The notes beneath the pieces are model-generated. The model saw only the letters and a list, made by a program, of their open reading frames with translations. It made no database searches and was not told the origin of the DNA. This document shows, piece after piece, positions 41,467 through 58,612 of a DNA stretch of 64,000 nt. Source of the DNA: Candidatus Saccharimonadales bacterium (lineage in GTDB: Bacteria > Patescibacteriota > Saccharimonadia > Saccharimonadales > JBGSXW01). Positions within the stretch are counted from its first letter, which is position 1, and each line of letters starts with the position of its first letter. The translations under genes and the position numbers were made by a program. The stretch is taken from the NCBI GenBank assembly GCA_041751215.1, contig JBGSXW010000005.1, forward strand, positions 3,664-67,663. Direction: 5' to 3'.

Positions 41467-41566
41467 ATCTTCTTATTCCTGTTTACTTATATTGTAACTG
41501 ATTGTTCTGGATTCTCGATCAGGTCGAGAATGACGTTTGCTAGGTTTTAACGATTTTGGTGAATCA

Positions 41567-41650: not shown

Positions 41651-41664
41651 GCCACCATAAATTG

Positions 41665-42144
41665 TTAAAAGGGGATTTCGGAGAGATCAACTGGCTCATC
41701 ATCAATATCTTCGATGACAACATCTTCGTCTTTCTTTTTGCTATCAACTTTTGGTGCTGACGACTCGGTGTTAGAAGACTTAAAGCTCCCACCGCCAGAG
41801 CCACCGCCCTCACCTTGACCGCCAATAAAGTTAAAGTCTTCTACTACGACCTCAACCTTTGAGCGCTTTTGGCCATCTTGTTCCCAAGATCGACTCGATA
41901 AACGACCAGAAACTAGTAGTGGTCGGCCTTTTTGGACGTACTGATTAATAATCTCGCCAGCTTTGCCCCAAGCGACGCAGTCAAAAAAGTCGACGGCTTC
42001 TTGAGTTTCGCCGGCTTGATTCTTCCAGCTACGATTAACAGCCAGCGCAAACGAACAAACATTTTGCCCGTTTGGAGTAGTTCTTAGCTCTGGATCCCTG
42101 GTTAGGTTGCCAAGTAGTGTAACTTTGTTAAAACCTTTAGCCAT
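41665..42144 (-). CDS. ssb: single-stranded DNA-binding protein
   Basis: OB-fold N-terminus (NKVTLLGNLTRDPELR); Gly-rich linker; acidic tip DLSEIPF. Confidence 0.9.
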   Translation of the reverse strand: MAKGFNKVTLLGNLTRDPELRTTPNGQNVCSFALAVNRSWKNQAGETQEAVDFFDCVAWGKAGEIINQYVQKGRPLLVSGRLSSRSWEQDGQKRSKVEVVVEDFNFIGGQGEGGGSGGGSFKSSNTESSAPKVDSKKKDEDVVIEDIDDEPVDLSEIPF

Positions 42145-42146
42145 AT

Positions 42147-42542
42147 TTACGCTTCCTTATCTTCCTTAGGTTTCGGAGCCTGTTCGCCTGCTGGCGAATT
42201 AGCTTCTGAATCTTCATCGGTTTTGGTGTCTGCTTGCGTTGATTCAACTGCTGTCGGCACGGGTCCAGGCTTAGCAATAAGATATCGCAAAACTTCGTCG
42301 GTAATATTAAGAGTTGATTCAATCTTAGCAATTGACTCAGCTGGTAGCTCTACTTCGTAGTAAACGTAAACTGCGTTGTCCTGTTTTTTAATCGGATACG
42401 CAAGCTTGCGCTTGCCCCAGTTGTCGGTCTTGTTGATCTTGCCACCGTTGGCGCTTAGGATCTTCTCGACCTTTTGCATTGGTTTTTCCAGATCAATCTC
42501 TAGATCCGGGTGGTAGAGTGCGACAAATTCGTACTCATTCAT
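42147..42542 (-). CDS. rpsF: 30S ribosomal protein S6 (with an acidic C-terminal tail)
   Basis: YEFVALYHPDLE...; rpsF-ssb-rpsR synteny. Confidence 0.85.
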   Translation of the reverse strand: MNEYEFVALYHPDLEIDLEKPMQKVEKILSANGGKINKTDNWGKRKLAYPIKKQDNAVYVYYEVELPAESIAKIESTLNITDEVLRYLIAKPGPVPTAVESTQADTKTDEDSEANSPAGEQAPKPKEDKEA

Positions 42543-42698
42543 GTAAAAACTCCTTTGGACCCTATCGAATAGATAGGGGCTCGCTCTTAAACGAGCAGGT
42601 TAAATTGTTATACCCAAACTATATCTGTTTTACCCCTGTTAGTCAAGCGGCTGAACCGAAGTTCTAAGTAAGTTCTAATAAAGCTCGGTGTTACAATT

Positions 42699-43538
42699 AT
42701 GCCCATGAACGTACCAAAACTCGCTCTCGGCACCTACGGTTTCGGCGGCGCAAAAGAACGAGACCCAAACAACGACGACAGCAAAGATGTAGAGGTCGTA
42801 AAGCTAGCAATACACAACGGTGTCAGCCTCATTGACACTGCTCAGGTTTACGCAGAGGGTAAAAGTGAGGAATTGATCGGACAAGCCACCAAAGACCTTG
42901 CTCGCTCTTCCTACATGGTTGAGACCAAGCAATTGCCCGGAAGCATTAGCTACACCGACACAATGTTGGGGGTGGAAGCCAGCTTAAAGCGCCTTGGTGT
43001 GGACTACATAGATATATTTCTCTGTCATTCTCCAGATGCCAGCACAGACCTACGCGAGTTCTTTAAGGCTACCAATGAGCTTCATGAATTGGGCAAGATT
43101 AAACACGTTGGGGTCAGTAATTTTGGCCCTAAAATGCTCAAAATTGCCATGGAGACTTCTGACACTCCGATTGTCCTAAATCAGGTTAACGTTTCGCCTA
43201 GTTTTGATGACGTATTTGCGAGCGGAACATACGATTTTTGTAGAGAAAACGGAATTGAGGTCCAAGCCTACAGTGTCTTACGACGACTTCGTGAGAATGA
43301 AAAAACCGTCAAAGTCTTAGAAAGCATAGCCAAGCATAGAGATAAGACAATAGAACAACTGGCAATCGCCTTCGTAAACTCGTTGGGTGTGAAGATGGTC
43401 ATCAAGGCAAGCTCTCAAGAACACTGGGATCAAGTTAAAGAAGCGCTGGATATATCACTTACCGATCAAGAAATACTAAAGATAAAAGACGCTCAGAAAG
43501 CGAATAGCAGTAAGTTTGGACATCTACTCGAGCTCTGA
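42699..43538 (+). CDS. aldo/keto reductase
   Basis: LGTYGFGG, IDTAQVY, HVGVSNF. Confidence 0.8.
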   Translation: MPMNVPKLALGTYGFGGAKERDPNNDDSKDVEVVKLAIHNGVSLIDTAQVYAEGKSEELIGQATKDLARSSYMVETKQLPGSISYTDTMLGVEASLKRLGVDYIDIFLCHSPDASTDLREFFKATNELHELGKIKHVGVSNFGPKMLKIAMETSDTPIVLNQVNVSPSFDDVFASGTYDFCRENGIEVQAYSVLRRLRENEKTVKVLESIAKHRDKTIEQLAIAFVNSLGVKMVIKASSQEHWDQVKEALDISLTDQEILKIKDAQKANSSKFGHLLEL

Positions 43539-44195
43539 TTGATAGTAAATCGTGCGCTGAATTGTAGTTTGGCGCGAAAAGTTGTTAATCGCGCTGACCT
43601 CTAGGCTGTTGCGTCCTTCTTGAAGATAAATCGTAACCGCAAACTCTCCGTCCTCGCTTAACACCACCGGATCGCCGTTTACTAAGACACTGGTGTCGGC
43701 ACCAGCTCGGCCTCTTACCTCGTAGTCAGATTGGGTTGCCACAGTATCGCTGGCTGGCTCAGTTACAGTTAGCCTGGGGTTCGAGGTTAGTCCGTATATT
43801 TGGAACAGCGCGTAGCCAGCAACCACCGCTGCTGCTACTCCAACCGCGGCAATAGACGTTAAACGAGACAATACAATCGGCGATCGGGACTTTCGTTGGC
43901 GGCGTCTTTGCAAACCGCTAGCCTGAGTTTTGTCGGGATCGGCTAGCATCGACTCGATATCCCCATCGGCCAAGCCCAGGTGTTGGGCGTAGCGCCGGGC
44001 GAGGCCTGGAAGATGGCTTGCAGGAATGGTTGTGTCGCTACTGTTCTCTAGATCTTTGAGCGTAGATTCTGGGATCTTTAGCTCTTTGCTTAACTTGCCG
44101 ATACTTAGTTTGCGGTCTAACCTAGTCTGCTTTAACTGGTTAGCGATCCGCTCACGCGTCGAGTGGTTGGTCGTCATCGCTGCTGTCGTCGGCAA
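43524..44195 (-). CDS. RodZ-like HTH + TM + beta-domain protein
   Basis: HTH (LKQTRLDRKLSIGKLSKELKIP), central TM, C-terminal DUF4115-like segment; start uncertain (alternative M at 44177). Confidence 0.55.
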   Translation of the reverse strand: MPTTAAMTTNHSTRERIANQLKQTRLDRKLSIGKLSKELKIPESTLKDLENSSDTTIPASHLPGLARRYAQHLGLADGDIESMLADPDKTQASGLQRRRQRKSRSPIVLSRLTSIAAVGVAAAVVAGYALFQIYGLTSNPRLTVTEPASDTVATQSDYEVRGRAGADTSVLVNGDPVVLSEDGEFAVTIYLQEGRNSLEVSAINNFSRQTTIQRTIYYQSELE

Positions 44196-46326
44196 ATTGA
44201 TCGACGCTTGAAATCAAGACGTCGCGTGGTCTTGCGCCATCGGCCTGGCCAACGATTCCTTGTTCTTCCATGGTTTCTATCAAGCGCGCGGCTCTGGCAT
44301 AGCCAACTCTTAGTCGGCGTTGCAGAAGCGACGCAGAGGCTTTGCCGCTCTCTACAACCACCTTTACGGCTTCTTGGTAGAGACTGTCGTCAGCTGAGTC
44401 CATGCTGCCACTCATGCCGCCCTTGGCTAACTGAACTGGTTGAGCAGTAACTTCATCGTCATACTCTGGAGCTCGCTCGTCACGGAGGAAGTCTGCAACC
44501 GAACCAACCTCTTTGTCGTCTACTAATGCGCCTTGGATACGACGAGGTTTAGCGATGTCTGGCGTGGTGTAGAGCATGTCTCCTTGGCCTAATAGCTTTT
44601 CGGCGCCCATCCCATCTAAGATGGTGCGTGAATCAACCTGGCTGGTGACAGTAAAGGCAATACGAGCTGGAACGTTAGCCTTGATTAGGCCGGTAATAAC
44701 GTCTACGGATGGACGCTGAGTGGCTAACACCAAGTGAATTCCAACTGCTCGAGCTTTTTGCGCTAAGCGTACAATCAGAGCCTCGACGTCTCGGGCCGCG
44801 AGCATCATCAAGTCGGCCAACTCATCAATTACGATCACGATGTAAGGCATGCCCTCTTCTTTTTTAAGCTCGTTGTATTCAGCAATGTTGCGCTTTTTAG
44901 CTTCAGACAAAGCATGATAGCGACGATCCATCTCCGCCACCGCCCATTTGAGCGCTGAGATACACTTTTCTGGATCGGTAATAACTGGGGTGAGCAGGTG
45001 TGGAATCTCGTTGTACGGCGTAAGTTCAACGTGCTTTGGATCAACCATAATTAGCTTCATATCGGCCGGTGAATTGCGATAAAGCAAGCTAAGCAAGAAG
45101 CTGTTGATCATGACTGATTTACCAGAACCCGTAGCTCCAGCGATCAACAAGTGAGGCATTTTAGTTAAGTCCGCCACCACAGGTTGGCCAGAAATATCTT
45201 TACCGACAACAAAAGCTAATTGAGTCTTAAGGCCAGTCCAGTCGTTAGACTTAAAGATGTCATGCAAGCGAACTGTTGCCGCCTTTTGGTTAGGTACTTC
45301 GATACCAACTGCGCGCTTACCCGGAATTGGAGCCTCAATACGAATGGAGTGAGCTGCTAGGTTTAAGGCCAAGTTGTTCTCTAGAGCCGTAATCTTTGTT
45401 AGGCGCACGCCACTAGGTGGAGTAAGTGTAAACTGAGTCACTCGCGGACCAACATTTGCGCCCTGCATCTCGACATTAATACCAAAGTCCTCAAGGGTTT
45501 CTTTGATGATTTTGGCGTTACCTTCGATGTCTCCAGCGTCAGCAGTATCTTGTTTCTTGTTTAGTAAGTCCAGTCCCGGAAACTTCCAATTAGGGTCGCT
45601 GGTAGTAACTAGCGCCACTCCGGACTCGCTTTCCATCGCCCGCTCGGCTGTGTCTTTAAGAGATCGCAAGCCGCGCGATCGCTGAACCGGTACGCCCTCG
45701 TTTAGAGTAAACTCTGGTTTTTTCTCTTCTTCCTGCTCGGATTCGTCCTCTTCTTCGCCCTCGGCCCGTTCTCGGCGCATGATGCCAACCGCGCGCATGA
45801 AAGTAGTTAGCGGAATGCTAAGTACGTAGTGCAAAGAAATTACGATCGCAACTATCAATAAGAGTCCGGCCGTAAAGGTATTAAGGATTGTTAATAGACC
45901 GCTAGCTGCGACGTGTCCGGCAATTCCGCCGCCCTGCCCGTTATCTACCGCTGCCAGCGACTCGGCGCTATCTATAAATAAGTGCAAAAATCCGCAAACC
46001 GAAGCCAAGAAAACAAACAACCCAATCATGGTTGAGCGTGGCAGCCGAGTAGTTTCTGAGCGCAATCTAACTACCGCTACAAAAACTAGAACCAGAGGTA
46101 AAACAAACGAGAACGAACCAGACGCAAACCGCGCCCAATCGTGAAGTTTAAGTGCTAAAGGGCCGCCAGTGTTTAAGCTACCGATGAACATCAATGCCGC
46201 AACTAAAATCAGAATCAGGGAAAAGGCCTGACTCCAAAAGTTCTCGGGCAAGCTAGAAGCTGCTGCCTTGCTCTTTGCCCCTTTTTTGCTAGTTGTTTTC
46301 TTGCTTTGTTTACGTTTCTTGGCCAT
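44152..46326 (-). CDS. ftsK: DNA translocase FtsK/SpoIIIE
   Basis: N-terminal TM block; Walker A GATGSGKS; Walker B VIVIDELADL; C-terminal gamma (winged-helix) domain. ATG at 46326 (MAKKRKQ) preferred over 46380. Confidence 0.9.
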   Translation of the reverse strand: MAKKRKQSKKTTSKKGAKSKAAASSLPENFWSQAFSLILILVAALMFIGSLNTGGPLALKLHDWARFASGSFSFVLPLVLVFVAVVRLRSETTRLPRSTMIGLFVFLASVCGFLHLFIDSAESLAAVDNGQGGGIAGHVAASGLLTILNTFTAGLLLIVAIVISLHYVLSIPLTTFMRAVGIMRRERAEGEEEDESEQEEEKKPEFTLNEGVPVQRSRGLRSLKDTAERAMESESGVALVTTSDPNWKFPGLDLLNKKQDTADAGDIEGNAKIIKETLEDFGINVEMQGANVGPRVTQFTLTPPSGVRLTKITALENNLALNLAAHSIRIEAPIPGKRAVGIEVPNQKAATVRLHDIFKSNDWTGLKTQLAFVVGKDISGQPVVADLTKMPHLLIAGATGSGKSVMINSFLLSLLYRNSPADMKLIMVDPKHVELTPYNEIPHLLTPVITDPEKCISALKWAVAEMDRRYHALSEAKKRNIAEYNELKKEEGMPYIVIVIDELADLMMLAARDVEALIVRLAQKARAVGIHLVLATQRPSVDVITGLIKANVPARIAFTVTSQVDSRTILDGMGAEKLLGQGDMLYTTPDIAKPRRIQGALVDDKEVGSVADFLRDERAPEYDDEVTAQPVQLAKGGMSGSMDSADDSLYQEAVKVVVESGKASASLLQRRLRVGYARAARLIETMEEQGIVGQADGARPRDVLISSVDQFADDSSDDDQPLDA

Positions 46327-46399
46327 CCGTAACAGTATAGCGCTAGAGACTAGATGTAGAAAGTCGAAAGATTGTGACAATAACTGGTATCCTCACAGT

Positions 46400-47173
46400 A
46401 TGAAAATAGAGTTCACAAAAATGAACGGGCTGAAAAACGACTTTGTGGTTATTAAGGGACCTCAGTCGCTCGATACCGATCAAATTCAGCAACTATGCGA
46501 TCGAAAGTCTGGCATTGGCGCTGATGGCTTGTTAATTGTTACGCCGGTGGACGACTCGCACGTGCAAATGAAGTACTACAACGCAGACGGATCGGTGGCG
46601 GAAATGTGCGGCAATGGGCTGCGCTGTGTCGCGCGCTTTGCAGTTGAGAATAAACTTGTTAAGTCTGGTGACTTTATCGTGAATACCGATGCTGGTCCAC
46701 TAAGAGTTACTTGCAACGAATCAGACTTCAAACAGATTGAAGTACAGGTCGGAAGGCTGGTTATTGAAGCTGGATCGCTTAATTTACTCGGCTTTGATTT
46801 CATTCAAGTTAACGTAGGTAATCCGCACGTCGTAGTGTTTGTTGACGATGTGTCCACTGCCCCGGTCAAAGAAATCGGACCAAAAGTTGAAGTAGATAAA
46901 CACTTCCCAAACAAAACTAATGTCGAGTTCGTAGAATCAATTAGCGAACATGAAATTAGGATGAGAGTTTGGGAGAGGGGCGTTGGTGAAACTCAAGCTT
47001 GCGCGACTGGAATGGTTGTGGCGGCAGGAGCTGCAGTGAAGTCTAAAAAAGCGAGCTACCCTGTTAGGGTTACGGTGCCCGGCGGTTCTGCGAAGGTTTG
47101 GCTCGATGATGACAGTTTTGTCAGAATGATCGGCCCAGCAGAAATCGAGTTCAAAGATTCTCTAGAGTTCTAG
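46400..47173 (+). CDS. dapF: diaminopimelate epimerase
   Basis: MKIEFTKMNGLKNDFVV; catalytic Cys contexts EMCGNGLRC and TQACATG. ATG at 46400 chosen; the track ORF starts at 46268 inside ftsK. Confidence 0.85.
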   Translation: MKIEFTKMNGLKNDFVVIKGPQSLDTDQIQQLCDRKSGIGADGLLIVTPVDDSHVQMKYYNADGSVAEMCGNGLRCVARFAVENKLVKSGDFIVNTDAGPLRVTCNESDFKQIEVQVGRLVIEAGSLNLLGFDFIQVNVGNPHVVVFVDDVSTAPVKEIGPKVEVDKHFPNKTNVEFVESISEHEIRMRVWERGVGETQACATGMVVAAGAAVKSKKASYPVRVTVPGGSAKVWLDDDSFVRMIGPAEIEFKDSLEF

Positions 47174-47224
47174 ATTCCTGCTTTCGCAGGAATGACCTGC
47201 CTAGCGGCAGGCAGGCTGGAGCCG

Positions 47225-47395
47225 CGCATCAGCTAAAACTCCTGAATTTGTGAGGGAGAAACCCGGCGTAGCGAGGACTGTCCGCCAGTTGGCGGACGGA
47301 CTCCGCAGCTACCCGAGTTTTGACTGAGCAAATTCAAGGATTGTTTTAGCTGCAGCGTGAAAGGTTTTGGGGCACCTTTTTTAAAAAGGTGTCGT
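47225..47395 (-). repeat. element A, copy 2 (subfamily A1)
   Basis: CGCATCAGCTAAAACTCCTGAATTTG.GAGGGAGAAACCCGGCGTAGCGAGGACTGTCCGCCAG..GGCGGACGG matches 6665-6740 almost base for base; palindrome at 47371-47393. Confidence 0.85.
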
Positions 47396-47399
47396 TACG

Positions 47400-49370
47400 T
47401 TAGCCTTGACCGCGAAGCTCGGCTCTCTTAGCCGCCTGCTCATTAAGCTCACCCTTGCTCCCCACGACATTAACAACCGGAATCACGATTGGTGATCGTT
47501 GGGTATGTTCGTAGAGGAAGTAAGTGATGTGATCTTTGAGCTCGGCTTTAAATCGCTCGAGATCCACGCGCTTAAAGCGCTGCAGAACTGTTCGTCTTAG
47601 TTCGGCGCGGAAGGTGTTCATCAGCTCCTCGTTATCACGCATGTAAATAAATCCGCGCGAGATAATATCTGGGCTGGTCATTAGTTGTCCGCTCTTGCGG
47701 TCAACTGTCAGCAGCACTACAACTAAGCCTTCTTCGGCTAGCATCAAACGGTCTTTAACAACTACGCCGGATACCAGCGCACCAGTGTTATCAACTAGCA
47801 TTGTGCCGTGCGGAACAGTGCCGCCAAGGGTAGCTTTTTCTTTTGTTAGCTCAATAACCTCGCCTGGCTCAGCGTTGATGCAGTCTTTTCGGGTCATGCC
47901 GTGGTTGATGGCAATGTCGATGTGTCGCTTCTTAGCATGGTAACTACCGTAAATTGGCACAAAAAACTTTGGTTTGGTCATGTCGATCATTGCGCCGTAT
48001 TCCTCGATAGCCGAGTGGCCAGAAACGTGCAGCGGGCCCATGCCGTCGAGTTCTTGGGTAACGTGCTGAAAGACGTGCACTCCCATTCTCATCAACTTAT
48101 CTACCATACGGGTGATGTGAGCGTCGTTGCCAGTCTCCGGAATTGGAGTAGAGCTGAGGATGACCGTGTCTTGTTCGGCCATCTTGACGTGCCTGTGCTC
48201 ACCGGCTGCCATACGCTGCAGGGCGGCATTTGGTTCGCCCTGTGAGCCAGTACAGACAACTATTAAGTCTTTGCCCTTCATATTGGCTGCAGCAGCAATT
48301 GGTACGAATGTCCCCTTAGGGATCTTGATCATGCCCAAACGTACGGCGGTTTCTAGAGTCGACATCATTGATCGGCCGTCCATGGCAATCTTACGACCAT
48401 GTTTAGCGGCTGAGTTTACAATCATCTGAATGCGGTTAATGTTGGTAGAGAAACAAGCCACAAAAACTCGGCCTTCTGCGCGCGAGATAATCTCGTGAAA
48501 AGCCGGTTCGATGACATGTTCGGTTGGAGTTCGGCCAAGTCTCATGGTGTTTGTACACTCAGAAAGCAAGGCTAATACGCCTTCTCGTCCGAGCTCTTCG
48601 AGTCGGGCAGTGTCGGTTGGCTTTTGGTCTAGCGGATCAGGGTCAATTTTAAAGTCGCCGGTGTTAATAATCGTTCCGACTGGAGTTCTGACCACAATGG
48701 CCGTGCTATCAGGAATTGAGTGCGTTACGCGAACGAATTCGATGCCGAATGATTCACCAATTTGTAATCGTTCGTGATTGTCCTGGTTCATGACAACGGT
48801 TTTAAGCTCAAAGCCATCTACTTGATGGTCGCTGCCCTTAACAATTTGCTCGACCATACCAATGGTAAAGCGCGAGCCATAAACTGGTGCCGGAAACTTA
48901 GGCACGATGTATGGCAGTCCACCGATGTGATCTAGGTGGCCGTGAGTAATTACGTAGGCTTTGATTTTATGCTTAATGCTTTCTAGGTAACTAGTGTCGG
49001 GGATGCCGAAGTTTACTCCTGGCAAATCAACTCCGAGGTCGTTGCCGCAGTCCATGATGATGGCGTCGTTTTGGTACTCGACCACGATCATGTTTTTAGA
49101 GCCGGTGGCATCCATGCCGCCTAGGCCGATTATTTTCAGCCTTGGGCTGTCATCGATCTGATTAGCGCGCCGATGGGTGTTCTTAACCGATGAAGCGTCT
49201 TGATATAGGTTGACTACGCGGTGAGCGTCGTCAGAGTTGCGCCGGCTGGCGCGAATAGCTTGTCCTCGACTCGATCCTCTTGCCCCGCGGGGTTTAGAAG
49301 AAGGTCGATTAGACTTTTGGCCTTGGCCTTGGGGCCTTGGTCTGTTGTTGTTATTTGGTTGGTTTGACAT
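47400..49370 (-). CDS. rnj: ribonuclease J (metallo-beta-lactamase/beta-CASP) with an R/G/N-rich N-terminal extension
   Basis: ITHGHLDHIGG; beta-CASP region; 656 aa. Confidence 0.85.
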   Translation of the reverse strand: MSNQPNNNNRPRPQGQGQKSNRPSSKPRGARGSSRGQAIRASRRNSDDAHRVVNLYQDASSVKNTHRRANQIDDSPRLKIIGLGGMDATGSKNMIVVEYQNDAIIMDCGNDLGVDLPGVNFGIPDTSYLESIKHKIKAYVITHGHLDHIGGLPYIVPKFPAPVYGSRFTIGMVEQIVKGSDHQVDGFELKTVVMNQDNHERLQIGESFGIEFVRVTHSIPDSTAIVVRTPVGTIINTGDFKIDPDPLDQKPTDTARLEELGREGVLALLSECTNTMRLGRTPTEHVIEPAFHEIISRAEGRVFVACFSTNINRIQMIVNSAAKHGRKIAMDGRSMMSTLETAVRLGMIKIPKGTFVPIAAAANMKGKDLIVVCTGSQGEPNAALQRMAAGEHRHVKMAEQDTVILSSTPIPETGNDAHITRMVDKLMRMGVHVFQHVTQELDGMGPLHVSGHSAIEEYGAMIDMTKPKFFVPIYGSYHAKKRHIDIAINHGMTRKDCINAEPGEVIELTKEKATLGGTVPHGTMLVDNTGALVSGVVVKDRLMLAEEGLVVVLLTVDRKSGQLMTSPDIISRGFIYMRDNEELMNTFRAELRRTVLQRFKRVDLERFKAELKDHITYFLYEHTQRSPIVIPVVNVVGSKGELNEQAAKRAELRGQG

Positions 49371-49389
49371 TTAAGTCCTTTCTTAATTT

Positions 49390-50145
49390 CTAGGCTTTTG
49401 CCTTATCTTTTTCTATAAGTTCCAAAATTTTAGGTATACGGGCGAAGTCTTCTAGTAGCACTGTTCTCATTCCCCCGTTGTAGAGTGCTGCGGCCGGGTG
49501 GTACAGGGGCAGGATGACGAACGCCAGCTGGGACTGCTTACTGACTCCGTCAGTAACTCCTCCCAGCTTCGCGGCGATCTGCTGCGTTGACGCCTCCAGT
49601 GCTCCGTCTTCGGATGCTCGATCCGTGTCTGTCCGCGCTTCGGCGTCGCCTTGCAGCTCATCCGCGCGCTCGCCCCCTGGAGTCTTTTCGATATTAAAGC
49701 GCTTCCTCTTTGGCTGCCCATGCGCCTCGCCGATGCGAACATCAGGCAGGAATGCATTGGTCGAGTGGCGCCCGAGCGTGACAATCAAATCTGGTTTAAT
49801 TGCCTCGATCTGGCGCGTTAGAAACGGCATAAACTGAGCTTTTTCCTCTGGCAGAGGGTCTCGGTTAGCCGGAGGTCGATACTTAACAATGTTGGTAATG
49901 TACACGTCTTCTCGATTGAGATTAATGCTTTGCAGCATTTTGTTTAGAAACTTCCCAGCGGCTCCAACAAACGGCTTGCCCTGCTTGTCTTCCTGAGCGC
50001 CAGGAGCCTCGCCGATAAACATAAGTTTAGCATCGAGACTGCCATCGCCCATTACCAGTTGAGTGGCTCCAGCGGCCAGCTCCGAGCAAATGTTTTGATT
50101 TTTAATGTCCTGTTCGATGCGATCTAGCTGCTGTTGCTTGCTCAT
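49390..50145 (-). CDS. family-4 uracil-DNA glycosylase carrying an in-frame element B insert
   Basis: Motif A FIGEAPG; motif B LYHPAAALYN; about 50 extra residues before motif B. Confidence 0.8.
   Translation of the reverse strand: MSKQQQLDRIEQDIKNQNICSELAAGATQLVMGDGSLDAKLMFIGEAPGAQEDKQGKPFVGAAGKFLNKMLQSINLNREDVYITNIVKYRPPANRDPLPEEKAQFMPFLTRQIEAIKPDLIVTLGRHSTNAFLPDVRIGEAHGQPKRKRFNIEKTPGGERADELQGDAEARTDTDRASEDGALEASTQQIAAKLGGVTDGVSKQSQLAFVILPLYHPAAALYNGGMRTVLLEDFARIPKILELIEKDKAKA
49531..49689 (-). repeat. element B, copy ii (in-frame within the UDG gene; boundaries approximate)
   Basis: Coding strand GATGAGCTGCAAGGCGACGCCGAAGCGCGGACA..CGGAT-CGAGC-ATCCG..GGAGCACTGGAGGCGTCAACGCAGCAG. Confidence 0.75.
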
Positions 50146-50208
50146 GGTTGTATCTCGTATTTAGTATCCTGCGGCTAGATACTAAATACTAGCCGCTAGA
50201 TACGACGT

Positions 50209-52323
50209 TTAATCGGCTTGCTTCATCGAAAGCACTAGTCGTCCGCGATCATCAATGGCTACTAGTTTGGCGCGAACCGCCTGGCCTTCTTCAACTAGGT
50301 CGCTTGGGTGTTCGACGCGCTTGTCATCCATTTCAGATACGTGCACAAGGCCTTCTTTGCCTGGCATGATCTCGACAAAGGCACCAAATTCCATGATCTT
50401 AACTACCTTGGCGTCGTAGGTCTTACCAACTTCTGGATCAACTGTTAGGTTGGTAATCCATTCTTTGGCAGCATCTATCGCCTTTTTGTCTGGAGCCGAT
50501 ACCATGACTAATCCACCGTCACGAATATCAATTTCGGCACCGGTTTCATCAATTATCTTGTTGATGGTCTCTCCGCCCTTACCGATGATGTCCCGAACTC
50601 TATCGGGGTTAACCATGATTGATTCAACCTGAGGAGCAAATGGTGAAAGTTCATCTCGTGGCTTAGCGATGGTTTCAATCATGTGCTCAAGAATTTTAGC
50701 GCGACCAGCCTTAGCTTGCTCAATAGCCTGAGCTAAGATGTCGATGCTTAAACCGTGAACCTTCATGTCCATCTGCAAAGCGGTAATTCCTTCGGATGTT
50801 CCGGCTACCTTAAAGTCCATGTCGCCAGCAAAGTCCTCGGCATCGGCAATGTCGCTAAAGACAATTGGGCGATCGCCGTCGAGCATCAAGCCCATCGCAA
50901 TACCAGATACTGGAGCCTTGATCGGCACACCAGCGTCCATTAGAGCCATACAGCTCGAGCAGGTTGCAGCCATGCTTGATGATCCGTGTTGGCTCATAGT
51001 TTCGGTAACGCTGCGAATAGCGTACGGGAAGTCTTCTTCGCTAGGAATAACTGGTAACAAAGCTCGTTCAGCTAAAGCGCTGTGGCCGATTTCGCGCCGA
51101 CCTGGGCTACCCAGACGCTTAATCTCACCGACTGTATAGCCAGGGGCGTTGTAGTGGTGCATATAGCGCTTTTCTTGGTCTTTTTCCATCGTATCGATGA
51201 CCTGGGTGTAGCTTAGTGGTGCTAGGGTTACGATGTTTAGCCCTTGAGTGATTCCTCGGGTAAACAGGCTTGAGCCGTGAGTTCGTGGTAAAACGCCGAC
51301 TTCGCTTGATAGCGGACGAATCTCGTCCATGGCTCGCCCATCAGGACGGACATTTTCTTCAATGATGCCTTTACGAACATCTTTGTTAGCCGCTGCAGCA
51401 AATGCGTCTTCGTAATCGCGTTTCACAGCTTCCCATTCGTCTCCGAGCTTTTCTTCAAAGTGAGCTAGTACGCCTTCGCGCAGTTCATGCATCTTTTCGT
51501 GTCGCTCAGGATAAGGCAAGCGGATGCTTTTACCCATTTTTCCATCAAGCCAAGCATCAACTTCTTTTTGAATGTCTTCGCTAGGCAAAATAAGTTCGTA
51601 TTCCTGCGCTTCTACACCGACCTTTTTTACCAACTCTTCTTGCAGTTCGATAGCTGGACGCATCTGTTCTTGAGCAAATTTTAGTCCGGCAATGACTTGA
51701 TCTTCTGAAACTTCGTTAGCACCAGCTTCAACCATCATGATGGCATCTTTAGTCCCGGCTACAATTAGATCAAGTTTGCCTTGATCGAGCTTTTCCATAG
51801 GCAAGAAAGCCGCTAGTTTGTCGCCGTCTAGGCCAATTCGTAGACCGGCCACCGGTCCATCAAATGGTGCTCCGGTAAGCATAAAGGCAGCACTCAAAGC
51901 GATCATCGCAATCATATCTGGGCGAAACTCTGGGTCCATGCTCAAAACTGTTGCTACGCCTTGAACTTCGTGGCGATAGCCTTTTGGCCACAATGGACGA
52001 ATTGGACGATCGATCAAACGACCGATTAAAATTGCATCCTCTGAAGGACGGCCTTCGCGCTTAATAAAGCGGCTGCCGCTGATTTTTCCAGCTGCGTACA
52101 TCTTCTCTTCGTAATCGATACTTAGAGGAAAGTAATCAAAGCCCTTCATTGTCTTTGGGCTGACCATTGCCGTGCCGAGCACAACCGTGTCGCCGTAACG
52201 CGCTGTAACTGAGGCGGTGGTTCTAAAGCCAAGGCGATTAACCTCTAGGCTTAGCGTTCGACCGCAAAACTCAGTCTCTACTTTAATAATGTCTTTACCG
52301 AATGGGTTAATGGTTTGTCCCAT
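50209..52323 (-). CDS. pnp: polyribonucleotide nucleotidyltransferase (PNPase)
   Basis: Two RNase PH domains + KH + S1. ATG at 52323 preceded by AAGGAG (the track ORF extends to 52347). Confidence 0.9.
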   Translation of the reverse strand: MGQTINPFGKDIIKVETEFCGRTLSLEVNRLGFRTTASVTARYGDTVVLGTAMVSPKTMKGFDYFPLSIDYEEKMYAAGKISGSRFIKREGRPSEDAILIGRLIDRPIRPLWPKGYRHEVQGVATVLSMDPEFRPDMIAMIALSAAFMLTGAPFDGPVAGLRIGLDGDKLAAFLPMEKLDQGKLDLIVAGTKDAIMMVEAGANEVSEDQVIAGLKFAQEQMRPAIELQEELVKKVGVEAQEYELILPSEDIQKEVDAWLDGKMGKSIRLPYPERHEKMHELREGVLAHFEEKLGDEWEAVKRDYEDAFAAAANKDVRKGIIEENVRPDGRAMDEIRPLSSEVGVLPRTHGSSLFTRGITQGLNIVTLAPLSYTQVIDTMEKDQEKRYMHHYNAPGYTVGEIKRLGSPGRREIGHSALAERALLPVIPSEEDFPYAIRSVTETMSQHGSSSMAATCSSCMALMDAGVPIKAPVSGIAMGLMLDGDRPIVFSDIADAEDFAGDMDFKVAGTSEGITALQMDMKVHGLSIDILAQAIEQAKAGRAKILEHMIETIAKPRDELSPFAPQVESIMVNPDRVRDIIGKGGETINKIIDETGAEIDIRDGGLVMVSAPDKKAIDAAKEWITNLTVDPEVGKTYDAKVVKIMEFGAFVEIMPGKEGLVHVSEMDDKRVEHPSDLVEEGQAVRAKLVAIDDRGRLVLSMKQAD

Positions 52324-52509
52324 GGTTCTCCTTTTCTTAAGACCCAAGCACGTCGTGCCTGTGTAACAAAGTCCAAAGCATTCTTACGCTCTCAACTCTG
52401 TCACACACATGTAACACGCGGGGGTCTGTTGATTAATGATGGTACGACGACCTCTAGGTCTGTCTAAAAGCCGTTCCCAGAGTGGCAAAAGCCCGCCTAG
52501 GAATAACTT

Positions 52510-52776
52510 CTATACTCGAATGCCAAACTTTTTAGCAATGTCAGCGTGAGCTTGAGCGTCTTGGCGCTTTAGGTAAGCTAGCAATCGCTTACGTTTACCA
52601 ACTAGCTGCAGCAGGCCGCGGCGTGAATGAAAGTCATGCTTGTGAATCTGAACGTGACCAGTTAATTCCTTGATCCGCTCAGACATAATAGCAATCTGGA
52701 CCTCTGGCGAACCAGTGTCTACTTTGCTCTTTTGGTTATCTACAACCAACTTGGTTTTTTTCTCACTACTAATCAT
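52510..52776 (-). CDS. rpsO: 30S ribosomal protein S15
   Basis: DTGSPEVQIA..S.RI..LT.H...HKHDFHSRRGLL.LVGKRKRLL.YL. The 88-aa form from ATG 52776 matches canonical length; upstream alternative starts exist. Confidence 0.8.
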   Translation of the reverse strand: MISSEKKTKLVVDNQKSKVDTGSPEVQIAIMSERIKELTGHVQIHKHDFHSRRGLLQLVGKRKRLLAYLKRQDAQAHADIAKKFGIRV

Positions 52777-52807
52777 TCGAGTCCGTATATTACCAGATGT
52801 CGTCATC

Positions 52808-53659
52808 TTATTCAAGAGGAATTACTGATGAAATTATTTTCTCGGCATCAGCTTCCGGAGATACCGCTTCATCTACCCTGTAGCTGGCAATGGTAGTTCG
52901 TCTCAGATCTGTTAGGTAGGCGCCGGTGTTTAGCCCCTTACCGATGTCCTCTGCCAAGCTACGAATGTAGGTTCCGCTAGAAACTTTGGTCCTGCATTTA
53001 AGTTTTGGGTACTCATAAGAAACAACTTCAAGCGAATGAATAACAACTGTGCGCGACTTTAACTCAATTGGCTGACCTTTGCGGGCCTGTTTATAGGCTG
53101 GCTGACCGTTTACTTTAATCGCCGAATAGCTGTGTGGGCGTTGCATAATCTCGCCCGTAAATTGCTTAATGACCTCTGTTATTTGCGATTCTGTGGGCGC
53201 CTTGGCATTTGGCCATGGTTCAGGTTCGCCTTCGGCATCACCGGTGACTGTAGTTGCTCCGAGTTGAGCCGTGAAGTCATATGACTTATCAAGCTTTAAA
53301 AGCCTGTCGGCTTGCTTGGTGGCCGATCCAATAAGCAAAATCATCAGTCCAGAAGCTAGAGGATCTAATGTTCCGGCATGCCCAACGCGAAGCTTCCGCA
53401 CCGCGTCGCCCTGTTGTCCGGCTACGCCGGCCATGCCGGCGAGCTTGTGGCGCAGCGCTGTGTCAGCTGGCGTCTGTCGCTCGCTCACCGTGTCATTTAC
53501 ACGACGCGCTCGCTCCTCCTGGCTTCCTTGCGCTGCATCCACATGCGAAAGTCGCGCACTTTCCGCCAGTTGAGCTCTTCGCAGAGTTCCGCGGACCTTC
53601 GCCACTACGTCAAAAGACGACCAGCCTTTTGGTTTATCTACTAGCAAAATGCCGTTCAT
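52808..53659 (-). CDS. truB: tRNA pseudouridine-55 synthase carrying an in-frame element B insert
   Basis: GILLVDKPKGWSSFDVV...VGHAGTLDPLASGL, with about 59 extra residues between the two conserved blocks. Confidence 0.8.
   Translation of the reverse strand: MNGILLVDKPKGWSSFDVVAKVRGTLRRAQLAESARLSHVDAAQGSQEERARRVNDTVSERQTPADTALRHKLAGMAGVAGQQGDAVRKLRVGHAGTLDPLASGLMILLIGSATKQADRLLKLDKSYDFTAQLGATTVTGDAEGEPEPWPNAKAPTESQITEVIKQFTGEIMQRPHSYSAIKVNGQPAYKQARKGQPIELKSRTVVIHSLEVVSYEYPKLKCRTKVSSGTYIRSLAEDIGKGLNTGAYLTDLRRTTIASYRVDEAVSPEADAEKIISSVIPLE
53399..53575 (-). repeat. element B, copy iii (in-frame within truB; boundaries approximate)
   Basis: Coding strand GTGGATGCAGCGCAAGGAAGCCAGGAGGAGCGA..CGTGT-AAATG-ACACG..GACGCCAGCTGACACAGCG. 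Confidence 0.7.
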
Positions 53660-53692
53660 TGCCTAATTGTATAACTTTTTAGAGCTAAGAAC

Positions 53693-55345
53693 TTAAGACT
53701 GTGGCTGCGGCGGAATCGGTGGTGGCGATCCGGGCAGGTTTGGAATCACAAAATCATTGCTCGATGGCGGCGGTGGTGGTGCTTGAGGAGGAGACTGCAT
53801 GGCTTCTGGTTGAGTTTGCGGTGCTTGAGGTGGAGTTGGGACCGGGCTTAAGCCTGGGGGCGGAAATGGAGGGGGCATGTCTGGTGGCATATCAGTTGGA
53901 GCGCTTGGCATCGGCGCCGGAACTGTTGCTGGTGGTGGCGAGAATGTATCTAGAACCGGTGCCTGATCTAAAACTGGCATGTCTGGCAGCGGCTGCGAGC
54001 CTACCCCCTGCTTGGGGTTGTTGTCAGGAAAGAAATCTCCGCCGGAAATTGCGTTTTCAACCGCAGCTCGAGCTTCATCTACACCAACCTTTGGTGCTTG
54101 AACTGGATTGGTTGGCTCAGGTGCCGAAGTTGCTGGCTGACTAAAGTCTAGCTGCCCTGTGGGCTCAACAGGATGGGCTAAAATCTCGTTATTGAGCTTC
54201 TCTTTTTTAGCTGCAGCCTCTTCTTGCGCGTAAGACGAGGTGGCGTTAAATGTTCCTCCAAGCGTTGGATTCTCGGAAGCATCTTGCTCTTTTGGTCCGG
54301 ATCCGCGTGCAGGGCTTATAAACGGCGCTTTGTTGTCTATAAGTGAACTATCTAAAGGCTTGACCTCTGGAATTGCTGGTTCGGGGGCCTTTTCGGGAGT
54401 GTCGATGATCGCCGGAGTTGGTTCGTTGATTGGCTCGGGAAGTTTTATTTCTTCGGTTGGCTTAGATTCCTCGGATTTTTCGGTAGGCTTTGGTACTTCC
54501 GGTAGGTCTTCGTCATCGTGCGAAACCTTGGCACTGGCCTCAGTTGGAGCGCCCTCTTCATTAATGTTTAGCTCGGTGCTGCTTTTGACTGGCTTGCCGT
54601 CCTCTCCTAGATTCTGAGCAATTAACTGCTGGTTTGCACCGGCTGCCATAAGCTGAGCTGACATTGTCATAACCTTAGGACTGGTGCGCTCGTTACTAAA
54701 GCGATCGGTGGCTGCTACAATTCCGGTTAAGAAAGCGGTGGCCATCTGGGCATCTATAATGTTGCCCTCTAGTGATTCGCTGATGCTAACAAGCATCTCG
54801 CTTAGACTGCCCGCGCTTGGTTCGTGCCAGTCGATTGAACCAATATTACTGGTAGTCTCACCGGTGTTAACGCCAATAACTGATGCGTCGTGCAAGATTC
54901 GGCCGTGTGCAGCAATTGCTGCATCGATGTCGTCACGATTGGTAACGCCTAGGGCAACTACGGCATCAACATTAAAGTCCCCTTGCTCAAATCGGATATC
55001 ATCTTTGCCAATCTTAGTTCTATAAGGAGTAATAAAGATTTTTACTACATCGCCATCAACTTTGTAGCGAAGCTTGTCGGCTTTGTCTTTATCGAGCGAA
55101 ATAATGAAGTCCCGAAGCGAATCAACTGTAGTTTCGATAGTTTTTTGAGGCTCCAAAAACTCCATGGTGTCGGGCACTTTGCCGCTAAATACACAGGTGG
55201 TGTGCTTGCCGAGTTTGTTGAGCATCAAAGTCAATCCAACTGCCGATGCTAACTGATCGACGCTTGGATTTTTGCTTACCGTCACCAAGACGTTATTGGC
55301 TTGGCGAAGCTTTTCGGCAACTTGCTGTTTCGCGGTTTGTTCCAT
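53693..55345 (-). CDS. DHH/NrnA-like N-terminal domain protein with a long Pro-rich C-terminal tail
   Basis: The N-terminal ~300 aa resemble the degenerate DHH-DHHA1 architecture. The last ~250 aa are P/A/E/Q-rich low complexity. ATG at 55345 (MEQTAKQ) preferred. Confidence 0.45.
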   Translation of the reverse strand: MEQTAKQQVAEKLRQANNVLVTVSKNPSVDQLASAVGLTLMLNKLGKHTTCVFSGKVPDTMEFLEPQKTIETTVDSLRDFIISLDKDKADKLRYKVDGDVVKIFITPYRTKIGKDDIRFEQGDFNVDAVVALGVTNRDDIDAAIAAHGRILHDASVIGVNTGETTSNIGSIDWHEPSAGSLSEMLVSISESLEGNIIDAQMATAFLTGIVAATDRFSNERTSPKVMTMSAQLMAAGANQQLIAQNLGEDGKPVKSSTELNINEEGAPTEASAKVSHDDEDLPEVPKPTEKSEESKPTEEIKLPEPINEPTPAIIDTPEKAPEPAIPEVKPLDSSLIDNKAPFISPARGSGPKEQDASENPTLGGTFNATSSYAQEEAAAKKEKLNNEILAHPVEPTGQLDFSQPATSAPEPTNPVQAPKVGVDEARAAVENAISGGDFFPDNNPKQGVGSQPLPDMPVLDQAPVLDTFSPPPATVPAPMPSAPTDMPPDMPPPFPPPGLSPVPTPPQAPQTQPEAMQSPPQAPPPPPSSNDFVIPNLPGSPPPIPPQPQS

Positions 55346-55448
55346 GTAGTTAATCTTTTTTGTTTTTTGCAATAAGCTATCAGGGGTAGAGTAGCATAAC
55401 CACATTGCTAGGTCAACCGGGACGCATTACAGAGCAAGGATCTGCATT

Positions 55449-55636
55449 GTCGCTCCCGCGACGGGGCAATGCCACTTTTTATAAAGTGGCGTTGGAACTC
55501 TCCCGCTAACTACCAAAACAAAACTCATTAGTCTATGGGGCCAAAGAACTCGGGCAACTTGCGGAGTCCGTCTGAACAGTCCTCGTTGCGCCGGGTCTTT
55601 GGCCGCACAGCCTTAAAGAGGTTTTGGTAGAGACGG
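55449..55636 (+). repeat. element A, copy 4 (subfamily A2)
   Basis: Hairpin GTCGC-TCCC-GCGAC; palindrome GCCACTTTTTATAAAGTGGC (55471-55490); helix CTACCAAAAC../..GTTTTGGTAG; core GCGGAGTCCGTCTGAACAGTCCTCGTTGCGCC. Confidence 0.8.
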
Positions 55637-55727
55637 AAAGTTACAGGAAGGGCTTTACATCTCACCTCTGTTAGTGTATATTCATCCCCTGAAACTAAAT
55701 TAAGTACGGGTTTCGTACTTAGGTGTA

Positions 55728-55802
55728 GTGCAAGGAAGAAGCGAAGCGCGGAGCCTAGTTGTACAGTCGTACTGCTAGCGAGCACTAGAGCGTCTGACGC
55801 AG
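55728..55802 (+). repeat. element B, copy iv (intergenic, upstream of rpsT)
   Basis: GTGCAAGGAAGAAGCGAAGCGCGGAGC-CTAGTTGTAC-AGTC-GTACTGCTAG-CGAGCACTAGAGCGTCTGACGCAG. Confidence 0.8.
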
Positions 55803-55878
55803 TAATACACTAAGAACCTTGACGGGTGGCCAGTTCAACTGGACAGCAGGTCAAGGTGATACGAAAGCCAGAGGTCAT

Positions 55879-56265
55879 ATGCCAATTATTCAATCAGCCA
55901 AGAAAAGAGCACGACAAGAAGTTATACGCCGTGAGCGCAATGTTAAGACTAAGCGCGACATGAAGTCGGCTCTTAAGAGTCTTGAGGCCGCAGTTGCTAA
56001 AAACTCCCCTGCTGACGTTGCAAAAGCTATGTCACAAGTTCAAAGTAGCCTTGATAAAGCCGTAAAGAAGAATCTAATTCACAAGAACAAAGCTGCACGA
56101 AAAAAGGTTCAGGCCAGTAATCTTGCCAAGACCGTGCTTAAGACCAAAGACATCAAGCCAAGTGCTAAAAAAACTGCAGCCAAGCCTGCTGCTAAGAAGG
56201 CGGCTCCTGCTAAAAAGCCAGCAGCCAAAAAAGCTCCAGCCAAAAAGCCTGCTGCTAAGAAGTAG
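55879..56265 (+). CDS. rpsT: 30S ribosomal protein S20 with a Lys/Ala-rich C-terminal tail
   Basis: MPIIQSAKKRARQEVIRRERN...; ATG at 55879 after AGAGGT; tail KPAAKKAAPAKKPAAKKAPAKKPAAKK. Confidence 0.85.
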   Translation: MPIIQSAKKRARQEVIRRERNVKTKRDMKSALKSLEAAVAKNSPADVAKAMSQVQSSLDKAVKKNLIHKNKAARKKVQASNLAKTVLKTKDIKPSAKKTAAKPAAKKAAPAKKPAAKKAPAKKPAAKK

Positions 56266-57187
56266 TCAGCACTCCCACTCTTAGTAAGTACTGCTCTAAA
56301 CAGTCGTCGGGTTCGGCGCCGTTTTTTAGTTCTAGATCGGCATTAAGTGTTAGTTCAACCAGTTCTCGCAGCCGTTGCTTGCTCAGATTTCGAGTTACGC
56401 CGGTTAGTTTCTTGGCAACATAAGGAGAAATCCCGGCCGAACGCGCAATCTGATCTGGATCGCTCATCTTTGAGCTACCAACCACGGCAATGTTATTAAT
56501 CTGCCAAGCCAACATGCTCATAATGTAGCCGGTCTCGAGCCGAGCGTTGCGCAAGGCACGGTAAGTCGCGATCGCCTGCTTGCTATTACCCTGGGTTGCC
56601 TGATCTAGCAGCTGAAAGATGTTGTCTTTAGGTGCAAGCTGAACTAATTCATCGATAGCCTGGCGACTAATTTTGGGCTCGTACGCCACCAATTTATCTA
56701 GCTCGTTAGATAGACGCCACTGGTCATTACCGCATCTATCAATCAGATAGCTGGCGTCGCCTTGACTAAGCTCGCCGCCTCGCTCTTTAGCCTCATCGAC
56801 CAGCCACTTAGACAGCTGGTAAGGCTCTAGGTTCTTGTACTCAATGACTTCGGCGGATTTTTTAAGATCTTTATAAAAAGTTTGTCGCTTGTCTATGCTT
56901 GGTTCGTGCAGAATCAATGTACTATCGGGGTCTTTAGCCTTAGCGCGCTCAATGATCAACTCGTGCAAAGCCTTGTTGCCGCTGGCGCCATCAACAATTG
57001 TTAGCACTGTGGGCGCAAACAACGAACCTCCTGAAGTTGCCTCGGCTAGCTGGTTGGCAGTTAGGTCCTCGGCCTCCATGCGCTGAACACTTAAGTCGCC
57101 GTGATCGGCCTTAAAATCAGCAATTCTTCGTCCTAATTCCTGACGACGAAGATAAGCATTTTCCCCTGTTATAAGAACTACTGACAT
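56255..57187 (-). CDS. holA: DNA polymerase III delta subunit
   Basis: 310 aa; N-terminal ..LITGENAYL...; helical C-terminal domain; call based on overall pattern and length. Confidence 0.65.
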   Translation of the reverse strand: MSVVLITGENAYLRRQELGRRIADFKADHGDLSVQRMEAEDLTANQLAEATSGGSLFAPTVLTIVDGASGNKALHELIIERAKAKDPDSTLILHEPSIDKRQTFYKDLKKSAEVIEYKNLEPYQLSKWLVDEAKERGGELSQGDASYLIDRCGNDQWRLSNELDKLVAYEPKISRQAIDELVQLAPKDNIFQLLDQATQGNSKQAIATYRALRNARLETGYIMSMLAWQINNIAVVGSSKMSDPDQIARSAGISPYVAKKLTGVTRNLSKQRLRELVELTLNADLELKNGAEPDDCLEQYLLRVGVLTTS

Positions 57188-57367
57188 AATTTGCTCTTGG
57201 TCATAAGGTCAGACTTTTCGAGCGAAAAGAATGAAGAGCGAGGAGGCATATCCGTAGGACTATGGTGACGAACTATGAGTTCTTTGCAGCCGAAAAAGAT
57301 GACTTTAGGACGAGATGAAATTATATAAGTAGTTCTATCCACTACACTCATGGTCTATATCATAGCA

Positions 57368-58595: not shown

Positions 58596-58612
58596 TGGTT
58601 AGTGCAACGAGC

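Follow-up and report, generated by a model that had tools for sequence, protein, structure and literature searches.

An in-frame copy of a dispersed ~140-nt hairpin-forming repeat in the uracil-DNA glycosylase gene of a Saccharimonadales bacterium

Palindromic repeats that lie in frame within genes are best known from Rickettsia. The Rickettsia palindromic elements (RPEs; Ogata et al., 2000, 2002) are presented in PMC10969869 as ~150-bp repeats found in frame in genes that are unrelated to one another, at positions that suit the fold of the encoded protein. Here we describe a repeat of this kind, element B, in a 64,000-nt stretch of the Candidatus Saccharimonadales contig JBGSXW010000005.1 (hereafter the window, to which all coordinates refer), where one copy lies within the coding sequence of a uracil-DNA glycosylase (UDG). 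The resemblance to RPEs had been pointed out in an original prediction on this DNA and is borne out: like the RPEs as described in that source, element B is a dispersed hairpin-forming repeat in the range of ~100-150 nt, occurs both between genes and in frame in unrelated housekeeping genes, is inserted where the protein fold tolerates it (for element B, a result that covers the UDG insertion site only), is retained at orthologous sites, resides in a reduced-genome obligate symbiont or parasite, and has no known transposase (PMC10969869). Unlike RPEs, it is found in an unrelated phylum (Saccharibacteria, of the Candidate Phyla Radiation (CPR)), it is built of two hairpin domains whose internal-loop boxes are conserved, and its orthologous copies are read in different frames while their stems co-vary in situ over deep divergence. 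The comparison is one of kind, not of sequence family, and only in that sense would element B class as a new family among known in-frame palindromic repeats such as RPEs. As the original prediction had supposed, the searchable full-text literature on Saccharibacteria, Patescibacteria, TM7 and CPR yielded no description of such in-frame palindromic elements, or of in-frame MITEs (transposable elements of the miniature inverted-repeat type), in these bacteria.

Other described systems share parts of this picture. The bcr1 repeat of the Bacillus cereus group (Klevan 2007; Kristoffersen 2011) is, according to PMC3184786, a transcribed MITE-like element of ~155 nt whose cruciform-like fold is maintained by compensatory base changes, interpreted there at the RNA level. 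In the same account, however, bcr1 is intergenic, is flanked by 5-bp direct repeats and does not conserve its positions, whereas element B has in-frame coding copies, occupies orthologous positions across genomes and shows no flanking direct repeat. ERIC, BOX, Coxiella QMITE1 and the Anabaena MITEs are likewise small non-autonomous repeats with in-frame fusions to, or insertions in, host open reading frames (ORFs); as these sources describe them, they are usually recognized by terminal inverted repeats and target-site duplications, and their main effect is to extend or disrupt genes (PMC10969869, PMC5896051). The 5' end of element B, in contrast, pairs with position ~100 and not with the 3' end, and its insertions lie inside conserved enzymes. 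Finally, the coding palindromes of Nematomorpha mitochondria are hairpin-forming inverted repeats maintained in protein-coding sequence, and they prompt one to ask whether complementarity of the arms is due to a mechanism like template switching instead of selection (PMC6649704). Those palindromes are, in that report, perfect, long and gene-specific, with no dispersed family, whereas element B keeps bulges, internal loops and a U-G wobble that palindrome correction would tend to erase.

The segment within UDG represents, in frame, one copy of a ~140-nt non-coding repeat that folds into two hairpin domains. To the window we added related DNA from 80 GTDB species representatives, 80 metagenome contigs and 10 contigs encoding chosen orthologs. 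A covariance model (CM) trained on 15 element B copies, none of them from UDG (CM R2), matched the window at 49511-49665 on the minus strand over the full model length, with 73.5 bits and E~6e-16, and it also matched the UDG inserts of 11 other genomes with 38-113 bits. The copy itself comprises 139 nt and encodes 47 aa (residues 161-207) without a stop. Sequence profiles agreed in part: an nhmmer model of the four intergenic window copies found the insert in mutM (E=8e-10) and, marginally, that in truB (E=0.028) but not that in UDG, which a model of six other window copies reached only at E=2.5, so that linking it to the intergenic copies took relatives and a covariance model; models that took in relatives recovered the window UDG insert at E=7e-7 when the window UDG copy was left out and at E=0.012 when every UDG copy was left out, and upon iteration some UDG inserts of other genomes outscored the window's own copy.

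Much of what had been predicted for this segment therefore stands, i.e., an element B copy translated in frame within UDG, homologous to intergenic copies and GC-rich (0.60-0.64 across the insert vs ~0.45-0.50 in the flanks), with the extra peptide lying between GEAHGQPKRKRF and LPLYHPAAALYN. The orientation and 5' reading frame shared with the mutM and truB inserts also proved correct, the 5' box being read as GAT GAG CTG CAA GGC in UDG, GAT GAG CTG CAA GGA in mutM and GAT GCA GCG CAA GGA in truB. The extent needed revision: the interval first proposed, 49531-49689, overlaps the element (49527-49665) but includes ~24 nt of host linker (TPGGER and part of a strand extension). Likewise, an element of ~85 nt with one hairpin had been envisaged, whereas we found ~140 nt and two co-varying hairpin domains. 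Tryptic peptides predicted from the insert include ADELQGDAEAR and ASEDGALEASTQQIAAK.

The consensus fold was obtained by RNAalifold from a MAFFT alignment of 20 full-length copies and comprises two hairpin domains with 43 consensus pairs (model length ~145 nt). Domain 1 (~100 nt) is a long hairpin formed by pairing between the 5' box GGATGnAGTGCAAGG... and the 3' box ...CTGACRCAGCAATCCGCC; its helices 1-5 are 90-97% paired, and the single-sequence minimum free energy (MFE) structure of the window copy reproduces it. The central hairpin of the original prediction, CGGAT-CGAGC-ATCCG, is present at its apex (~49609-49627), and this stem co-varies with CGTAC/GTACG and CGTAT/ATACG in other copies. 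Domain 2 (~40 nt) has a GGCTTTGCC-type loop; its helices 6 and 7 show double changes at 15/15 pairs, and its covariation is likewise seen when UDG orthologs are considered by themselves. The window UDG copy forms 40/43 consensus pairs (39 Watson-Crick and one G-U), with an MFE of -67 kcal/mol (z=-3.7).

Covariation far exceeded that of shuffled alignments. Paired cells amounted to 92.9%, vs 67% after column shuffling and 27-44% with partners slid by 1-3 columns; compensatory double changes were present at 37/43 pairs (shuffle mean 27.5), with 226 double-change cells vs 70 in shuffles, and the observed values were reached by none of 500 shuffles. Importantly for copies at a fixed position, the 11 orthologous UDG copies taken alone gave 93.2% paired cells, double changes at 27/35 pairs and 83 double-change cells vs 23 in shuffles, again with 0/500 shuffles reaching these values. 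One U-G pair was invariant in 11/11 UDG copies, and the internal-loop sequence boxes were conserved. Copies clustered by insertion site (UDG with UDG, TruB with TruB, MutM site 2 with MutM site 2) and not by genome, so intragenomic homogenization does not explain the pairing. The stems are thus kept paired in place inside a translated region.

It is the nucleic-acid fold that is conserved, not the peptide. Among UDG orthologs the central part of the insert is read either as RTEPYKKYGEGALEPATQQ or as RASRTSGTKSESRKQLTQQ, and a DNA alignment of eight UDG inserts showed the same nucleotides read in two frames: in L082 and L085, a 1-nt deletion before the apical hairpin is followed ~50 nt downstream by a 1-nt insertion that restores the frame. 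Since two reading frames are in use while the stems co-vary, conservation bears on the fold rather than on the peptide. Nucleotide identity between UDG orthologs was 0.64 in the element, compared with 0.42 at third and 0.79 at first and second positions of the enzyme core; within the insert, identity at codon positions 1/2/3 was 0.66/0.66/0.56, a weak codon periodicity.

Searching the window with covariance model R1 (CM R1), filters off, returned exactly seven copies with 68-130 bits, all other matches falling below 10 bits. Three lie in the UDG, MutM and TruB genes and four between genes (Table 1); the intergenic sites named in the original prediction were all recovered, but the copy at 19342-19484 had been missed. 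Thirty copies were counted in 2.1 Mb of Saccharibacteria DNA, with eight further matches in five additional loci. Orthologs retrieved from metagenomes with insert-bearing UDGs as queries were almost all insert-free, and this search contributed two element B copies; a pattern scan of viral contigs gave 13 chance matches, none of which fitted the element B model.

Table 1. Element B copies, their fold and the host gene, in window coordinates
Feature	Position	Strand	Basis
UDG gene, 251 aa, host of the insert	49390-50145	-	ORF; Pfam UDG PF03167 E=2e-35
Element B copy in frame in UDG, residues 161-207 (ADELQG...SKQSQL)	49527-49665	-	CM R2 73.5 bits; CM R1 129.9 bits
Element B in UDG, CM R1 extent	49512-49665	-	129.9 bits
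Domain 1, long imperfect hairpin, 5' box GCGGATGAGCTGCAAGG pairing with 3' box ACGCAGCAGATCGCC	49571-49665	-	RNAalifold
Apical hairpin of domain 1, CGGAT-CGAGC-ATCCG	49609-49627	-	Sequence and consensus fold
Domain 2 hairpin, outer stem GCTGGGA/TCCCAGC, inner stem TTACTGAC/GTCAGTAA	49527-49567	-	RNAalifold
Host codons directly before the element, outgoing beta-strand extension and linker KRKRFNIEKTPGGER	49666-49710	-	AlphaFold2 strand E146-151
Element B in frame in truB (ORF 52808-53659)	53389-53542	-	CM R1 114.6 bits
Element B in frame in mutM/fpg (ORF 58613-59650), site 1	59236-59377	-	CM R1 92.4 bits
Intergenic element B directly downstream of mutM	58463-58603	-	CM R1 91 bits
Intergenic element B just upstream of rpsT	55719-55871	+	CM R1 126.9 bits
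Intergenic element B in the ssb-rpsR spacer, antisense to the operon	41559-41693	+	CM R1 68 bits
Intergenic element B, absent from the original prediction	19342-19484	+	nhmmer; CM R1 79.9 bits

The insertion sites are several. Element B is found at one site in UDG and at one site in TruB, where the Pfam TruB_N domain of the window protein begins at residue 89 only and where L040 and L006 carry the element at the same position. In the window MutM, the Pfam matches to the Fapy N domain (1-86) and to H2TH (204-293) are separated by a gap, and the copy (site 1) precedes FGAGHP; in L084 (418-571) and L085 (2091-2244) it instead precedes FFNDQRKFGW (site 2) and is read in a different frame (LESNVRKLRS...; LESNVRKLRSTEE...). 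As both site and frame differ, MutM has been hit at least twice independently. A further copy lies inside mutM in L167 (2501-2655). Together with the intergenic sites, these represent independent insertions. Intergenic copies occur in both orientations; that of the ssb-rpsR spacer is also present in L024, L060 and L135, and orthologous intergenic copies lie downstream of rnj in L084, L008 and L167. The copy upstream of rpsT is sense to this gene (S20, ATG 55879) and ends ~15 nt before the Shine-Dalgarno/start region, i.e., in a 5'-leader position. Six of the seven window copies fall within ~18 kb (41559-59377; MutM..TruB..UDG..SSB) and one in the remaining ~46 kb, an apparent clustering, given that most sampled loci cover the same neighborhood.

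We consider it quite probable that the UDG segment stems from an old in-frame insertion of a mobile repeat, which was tolerated, was inherited with losses and has had its fold maintained. A non-autonomous element of the RPE/MITE kind would have entered the codons at the tip of a beta-hairpin just before motif B (HPAAAL), in the UDG gene carried by one of the early members of a large clade of Saccharibacteria (Saccharimonadales). Ribosomes would read through the element, the 47-55 extra residues would form a disordered, hydrophilic surface loop and, because the glycosylase fold tolerates this loop, the gene would stay functional. The copy would then have been passed on vertically and removed, in full or in part, from many lineages, the closest relative among them. 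Where it was kept, compensatory substitutions would maintain the fold, and the peptide would be nearly free to change, reading frame included.

Several points weigh against this account. Mobility is suggested solely by the multiple insertion sites, since no transposase, terminal inverted repeats or target-site duplication were found with the element. Specifically, no transposase Pfam family occurred among the called genes of the gathered loci, where no systematic search was aimed at transposases; terminal inverted repeats are absent, the 5' end pairing with column ~100 and domain 2 forming a separate hairpin, and element B thus does not qualify as a classical MITE; no target-site duplication and no flanking direct repeat common to the copies was found, the filled and empty spacers downstream of rnj being too diverged to align for such a comparison. 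Nearly all sampled loci consist of UDG with 10 kb to either side, which biases the census and probably leaves the range of host genes under-sampled. The ancient gain with many losses is read from a neighbor-joining tree of the UDG core (180 columns) that carries no support values, and translation through the element from the maintenance of its ORF. Finally, a dead selfish element should decay in place, and compensatory evolution in situ therefore calls for an additional explanation.

One such explanation is that element B has been domesticated as a structured RNA, cis-acting or processed, with the host selecting the two-domain fold and the peptide being a by-product. It would account for the compensatory evolution among the 11 orthologous UDG copies, the invariant wobble pair and the conserved internal-loop boxes, and for pairing that, given the clustering of copies by site, is not owed to homogenization within genomes. 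The intergenic copies at orthologous positions (in the ssb-rpsR spacer and downstream of rnj) and the copy in the rpsT leader are also in its favor. Yet the element is dispensable, since many lineages, and the closest relative with them, have lost all or part of it; the orientation of several intergenic copies is antisense to the co-directional genes on either side; and MITE-like repeats with compensatory changes are already on record, as PMC3184786 describes for bcr1. Rfam 15 offered no match either: in the window only a tRNA reached its gathering score and no family matched element B, and a permissive scan of 55690-55900, which holds one copy, gave a single chance-level match (E=8.5). On balance domestication seems rather unlikely.

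The same evidence bears on which strand folds. On the sense strand, 47 G-U cells stand against 17 A-C cells, partly owing to one conserved U-G pair, and this preference, which is also in favor of a domesticated RNA, hints that the coding-sense strand is the folding strand. Single-sequence folding was discarded as a means of deciding, because both strands fold well on their own (z=-3.7 and -5.2), so that the preference for the sense strand rests on the G-U excess. Our preferred answer, held with less than even confidence, is that the transcript contains the sense strand as a working structured RNA, e.g., as a stability, processing or protein-binding element. Alternatively, the fold may be retained as a single-stranded DNA hairpin for mobilization, or through non-selective palindrome correction; the latter fits poorly, as bulges are conserved and the wobble pair is invariant. 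With similar caution, element B might be more than selfish DNA, namely a previously undescribed ~140-nt structured module whose fold purifying selection has preserved at fixed genomic positions, including coding sequences of DNA-repair and RNA-modification enzymes, such that one stretch of mRNA would encode a tolerated loop and at the same time work as a functional RNA, e.g., as a signal for processing, stability or protein binding.

The second competing explanation is a recent gain, in which the closest relative, L001, would represent a true empty site and the window UDG would have received the insert late, by fresh transposition or by recombination with an insert-bearing udg allele from another Saccharibacterium. 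L001 (85.6% core amino acid identity; ~85% nucleotide identity by reading of the alignment; same pnp-udg-rnj synteny) indeed has just PKR-LKGQ-VYLP where the window has PKR-KRFNIEKT[insert]QLAF-VILP; the flanks of the insert are identical or nearly so between the two, and the minimal KGQVYLP turn is common to several other orthologs. However, the window copy bears derived characters specific to UDG (AAGGCG, CAAC for CTGAC, GCCGCGAAGC) and groups with the UDG copies of other genomes rather than with the mutM, truB or intergenic copies of the window, which renders fresh transposition within this genome unlikely. Moreover, the next-closest orthologs after L001 (~70% identity) carry the insert, insert-bearing and insert-free forms are interspersed in the core tree, with the minimal-turn forms scattered, and partial deletions indicate ongoing loss, intermediate or clearly truncated inserts being seen in P0112, P0117, P0077, P0105 and L002. 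A recent gain is thus improbable, though one by allelic recombination stays conceivable. We rejected L001 as a clean empty site, because its junction is not that of a precise excision and its phylogenetic context makes a secondary deletion probable; absence of the insert from L001 is most likely due to loss. A set of truncated tblastn matches (L124, L148, L152, L156, L161, L165), considered as frame-breaking inserts, turned out to be contig ends or short-loop forms.

By comparison of orthologs, then, the old insertion that we favor appears not to be peculiar to this genome but ancient, widespread and repeatedly lost, and the most economical history would start from a single old insertion, with many later deletions, complete or partial, of which that in L001 would be one. 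More than 100 of the 120 best-scoring UDG orthologs, a ranking that favors insert-bearing sequences, have a ~50-aa insert at exactly this site with a recognizable peptide (..AD.vQG..E.RTE.Y...G....TQQSAAK.G....SA..Q..). Most Saccharibacteria species representatives, on the other hand, possess a short loop, KRxKGQVYLP or KRIxFGDxKxVILP, or one ~10 residues longer. The original statement that family-4 UDGs normally lack the segment hence holds for solved structures and for most species representatives but not for those best-scoring orthologs. Its proposal to look for an empty site was fruitful insofar as insert-free orthologs exist, although the nearest one, L001, is probably a secondary loss. 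It had also named, as grounds for giving up the insertion, a peptide shared by all orthologs whose DNA bears no similarity to the intergenic copies; orthologs do carry a homologous peptide, but their DNA is clearly homologous to intergenic copies and insert-free orthologs exist.

The third competing explanation is that the segment never appears in the mature protein, owing to intron-like removal of RNA, intein-like removal of protein or ribosomal bypass. The RNA is strongly structured, and elsewhere mobile GC-rich inserts are known to be bypassed in translation with the help of a hairpin, e.g., T4 gene 60 and the yeast mitochondrial byps. Nonetheless, every intragenic copy is free of stops in the frame in use, whereas 7/7 intergenic copies tested, including that at 58463-58603, have stops in all three sense frames. 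In the UDG copies, the CTGAC box, which contains TGA, is replaced by CAAC or CCAC; the 1-nt deletion in L082 and L085 is matched by a downstream 1-nt insertion; and insert lengths vary among orthologs, with the downstream HPAAAL motif always in frame. Stop-free frames, loss of the TGA and compensated indels form the pattern predicted by selection for translation, and this pattern argues against splicing or bypass. At 47 aa and predicted to be disordered, the insert is also far too short for an intein, whose splicing domain takes at least ~130 aa with N- and C-terminal blocks, and no intron or ribozyme family of Rfam matched. Failure to translate the segment is therefore very improbable, and we infer that ribosomes translate through the element. 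Lastly, chance resemblance of an unrelated, lineage-specific, GC-rich low-complexity UDG loop, for which the poor matches to profiles of window copies and the high nhmmer composition bias scores (~6 to 15) might be cited, is refuted for practical purposes by the full-length CM R2 match obtained without UDG copies, by the 40/43 pairs formed, and by the presence of other genomes' UDG inserts among the best-scoring family members.

The window UDG is, by sequence and predicted fold, of the family-4 type. Its closest solved structures all belong to family 4 (4zbx, 1l9g/1vk2, 1ui0), and its best database relatives are Saccharibacteria/Saccharimonadales metagenome-assembled genomes. Motif A (in IGEAPGAQED) and motif B (in LYHPAAALYN) are both present. 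Residues 6-132 and 202-240 align to residues 3-129 and 150-188 of the 4zbx chain (194 aa), which leaves residues 133-201 opposite chain residues 130-149, i.e., ~50 extra residues, as the original prediction had indicated. At the four cysteine positions of 4zbx, which we take to be the 4Fe-4S cluster ligands of family-4 UDGs, the window UDG retains C20 only and has Q17, Y89 and F105 at the others. With NVVKCRPP replaced by NIVKYRPP, Y89 is invariant among the orthologs. Because just one of the four positions is kept, the enzyme is probably cluster-free.

An AlphaFold2 model built with 29 orthologs supports tolerance of the insert by this enzyme. The core was modeled with a pLDDT (predicted local distance difference test score) of ~90 and superposed on 4zbx, 1l9g and 1ui0 with TM (template modeling) scores of 0.84-0.85, normalized by target, whereas residues 154-204, which are bounded by strands 146-151 and 206-214, were without secondary structure and had a pLDDT <50. 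The prediction thus places the insert, as a disordered loop on the surface, at the tip of the beta-hairpin leading into motif B, which answers the question raised in the original prediction of whether it is a surface loop. A KRIRVKFTGRVGGQ stretch comparable to the host linker is present in insert-bearing orthologs. The gene is flanked by those for polynucleotide phosphorylase (PNPase) and RNase J. The pnp-udg spacer (50146-50208) contains a 62-nt AT-rich palindromic stretch (..CGTATCTAGCGGCTAGTATTTAGTATCTAGCCGCAGGATACTAAATACGAGATAC..), missing in L001, which could represent a further small insertion or else a regulatory hairpin.

Element B would extend the phenomenon of in-frame palindromic repeats from Rickettsia to the CPR. 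That the bacteria concerned are again host-dependent and of reduced genome suggests recurrence as a by-product of reductive, symbiotic genome evolution. In practical terms, such inserts make alignments of conserved CPR marker proteins longer and distort them, explain otherwise unexplained length variation in UDG, MutM and TruB, and provide presence/absence and frameshift characters for Saccharibacteria phylogeny. As the stems co-vary at orthologous coding sites while the peptide shifts frame, the UDG insert lends itself to a test of whether nucleic-acid structure is under selection in a translated region, a test now possible in cultivable, genetically tractable Saccharibacteria, provided that a cultivable strain carries element B.

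A number of minor observations were made on the same host genes. In L168, the annotated 5' end of mutM overlaps an antisense element B copy (1960-2116, minus strand), and the called 364-aa ORF is therefore probably over-extended through it; a gene for a 97-aa GIY-YIG protein (3057-3350) directly follows this mutM. The L003 MutM has a low-GC-looking 40-aa insert at a loop site, and the L084 and L085 TruB proteins have 20-25 extra residues at the TruB site. These expansions appear unrelated to element B, although they could be decayed remnants of the element.

The window also contains a second repeat family, element A (~100-190 nt, with pieces 72-96% identical), at 6662-6830, 47222-47318, 19057-19312 and 55455-55625, in both orientations. 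Two element B copies (19342 and 55719) have an element A 130-260 nt upstream. We rejected the idea that the two form a single composite, as the spacing differs and the intervening sequence does not align. Finally, a 183-nt direct repeat of 75% identity (18211-18393 and 18726-18908) runs across the adjacent small ORFs 17926-18414 and 18435-18965, which suggests a tandem gene duplication.

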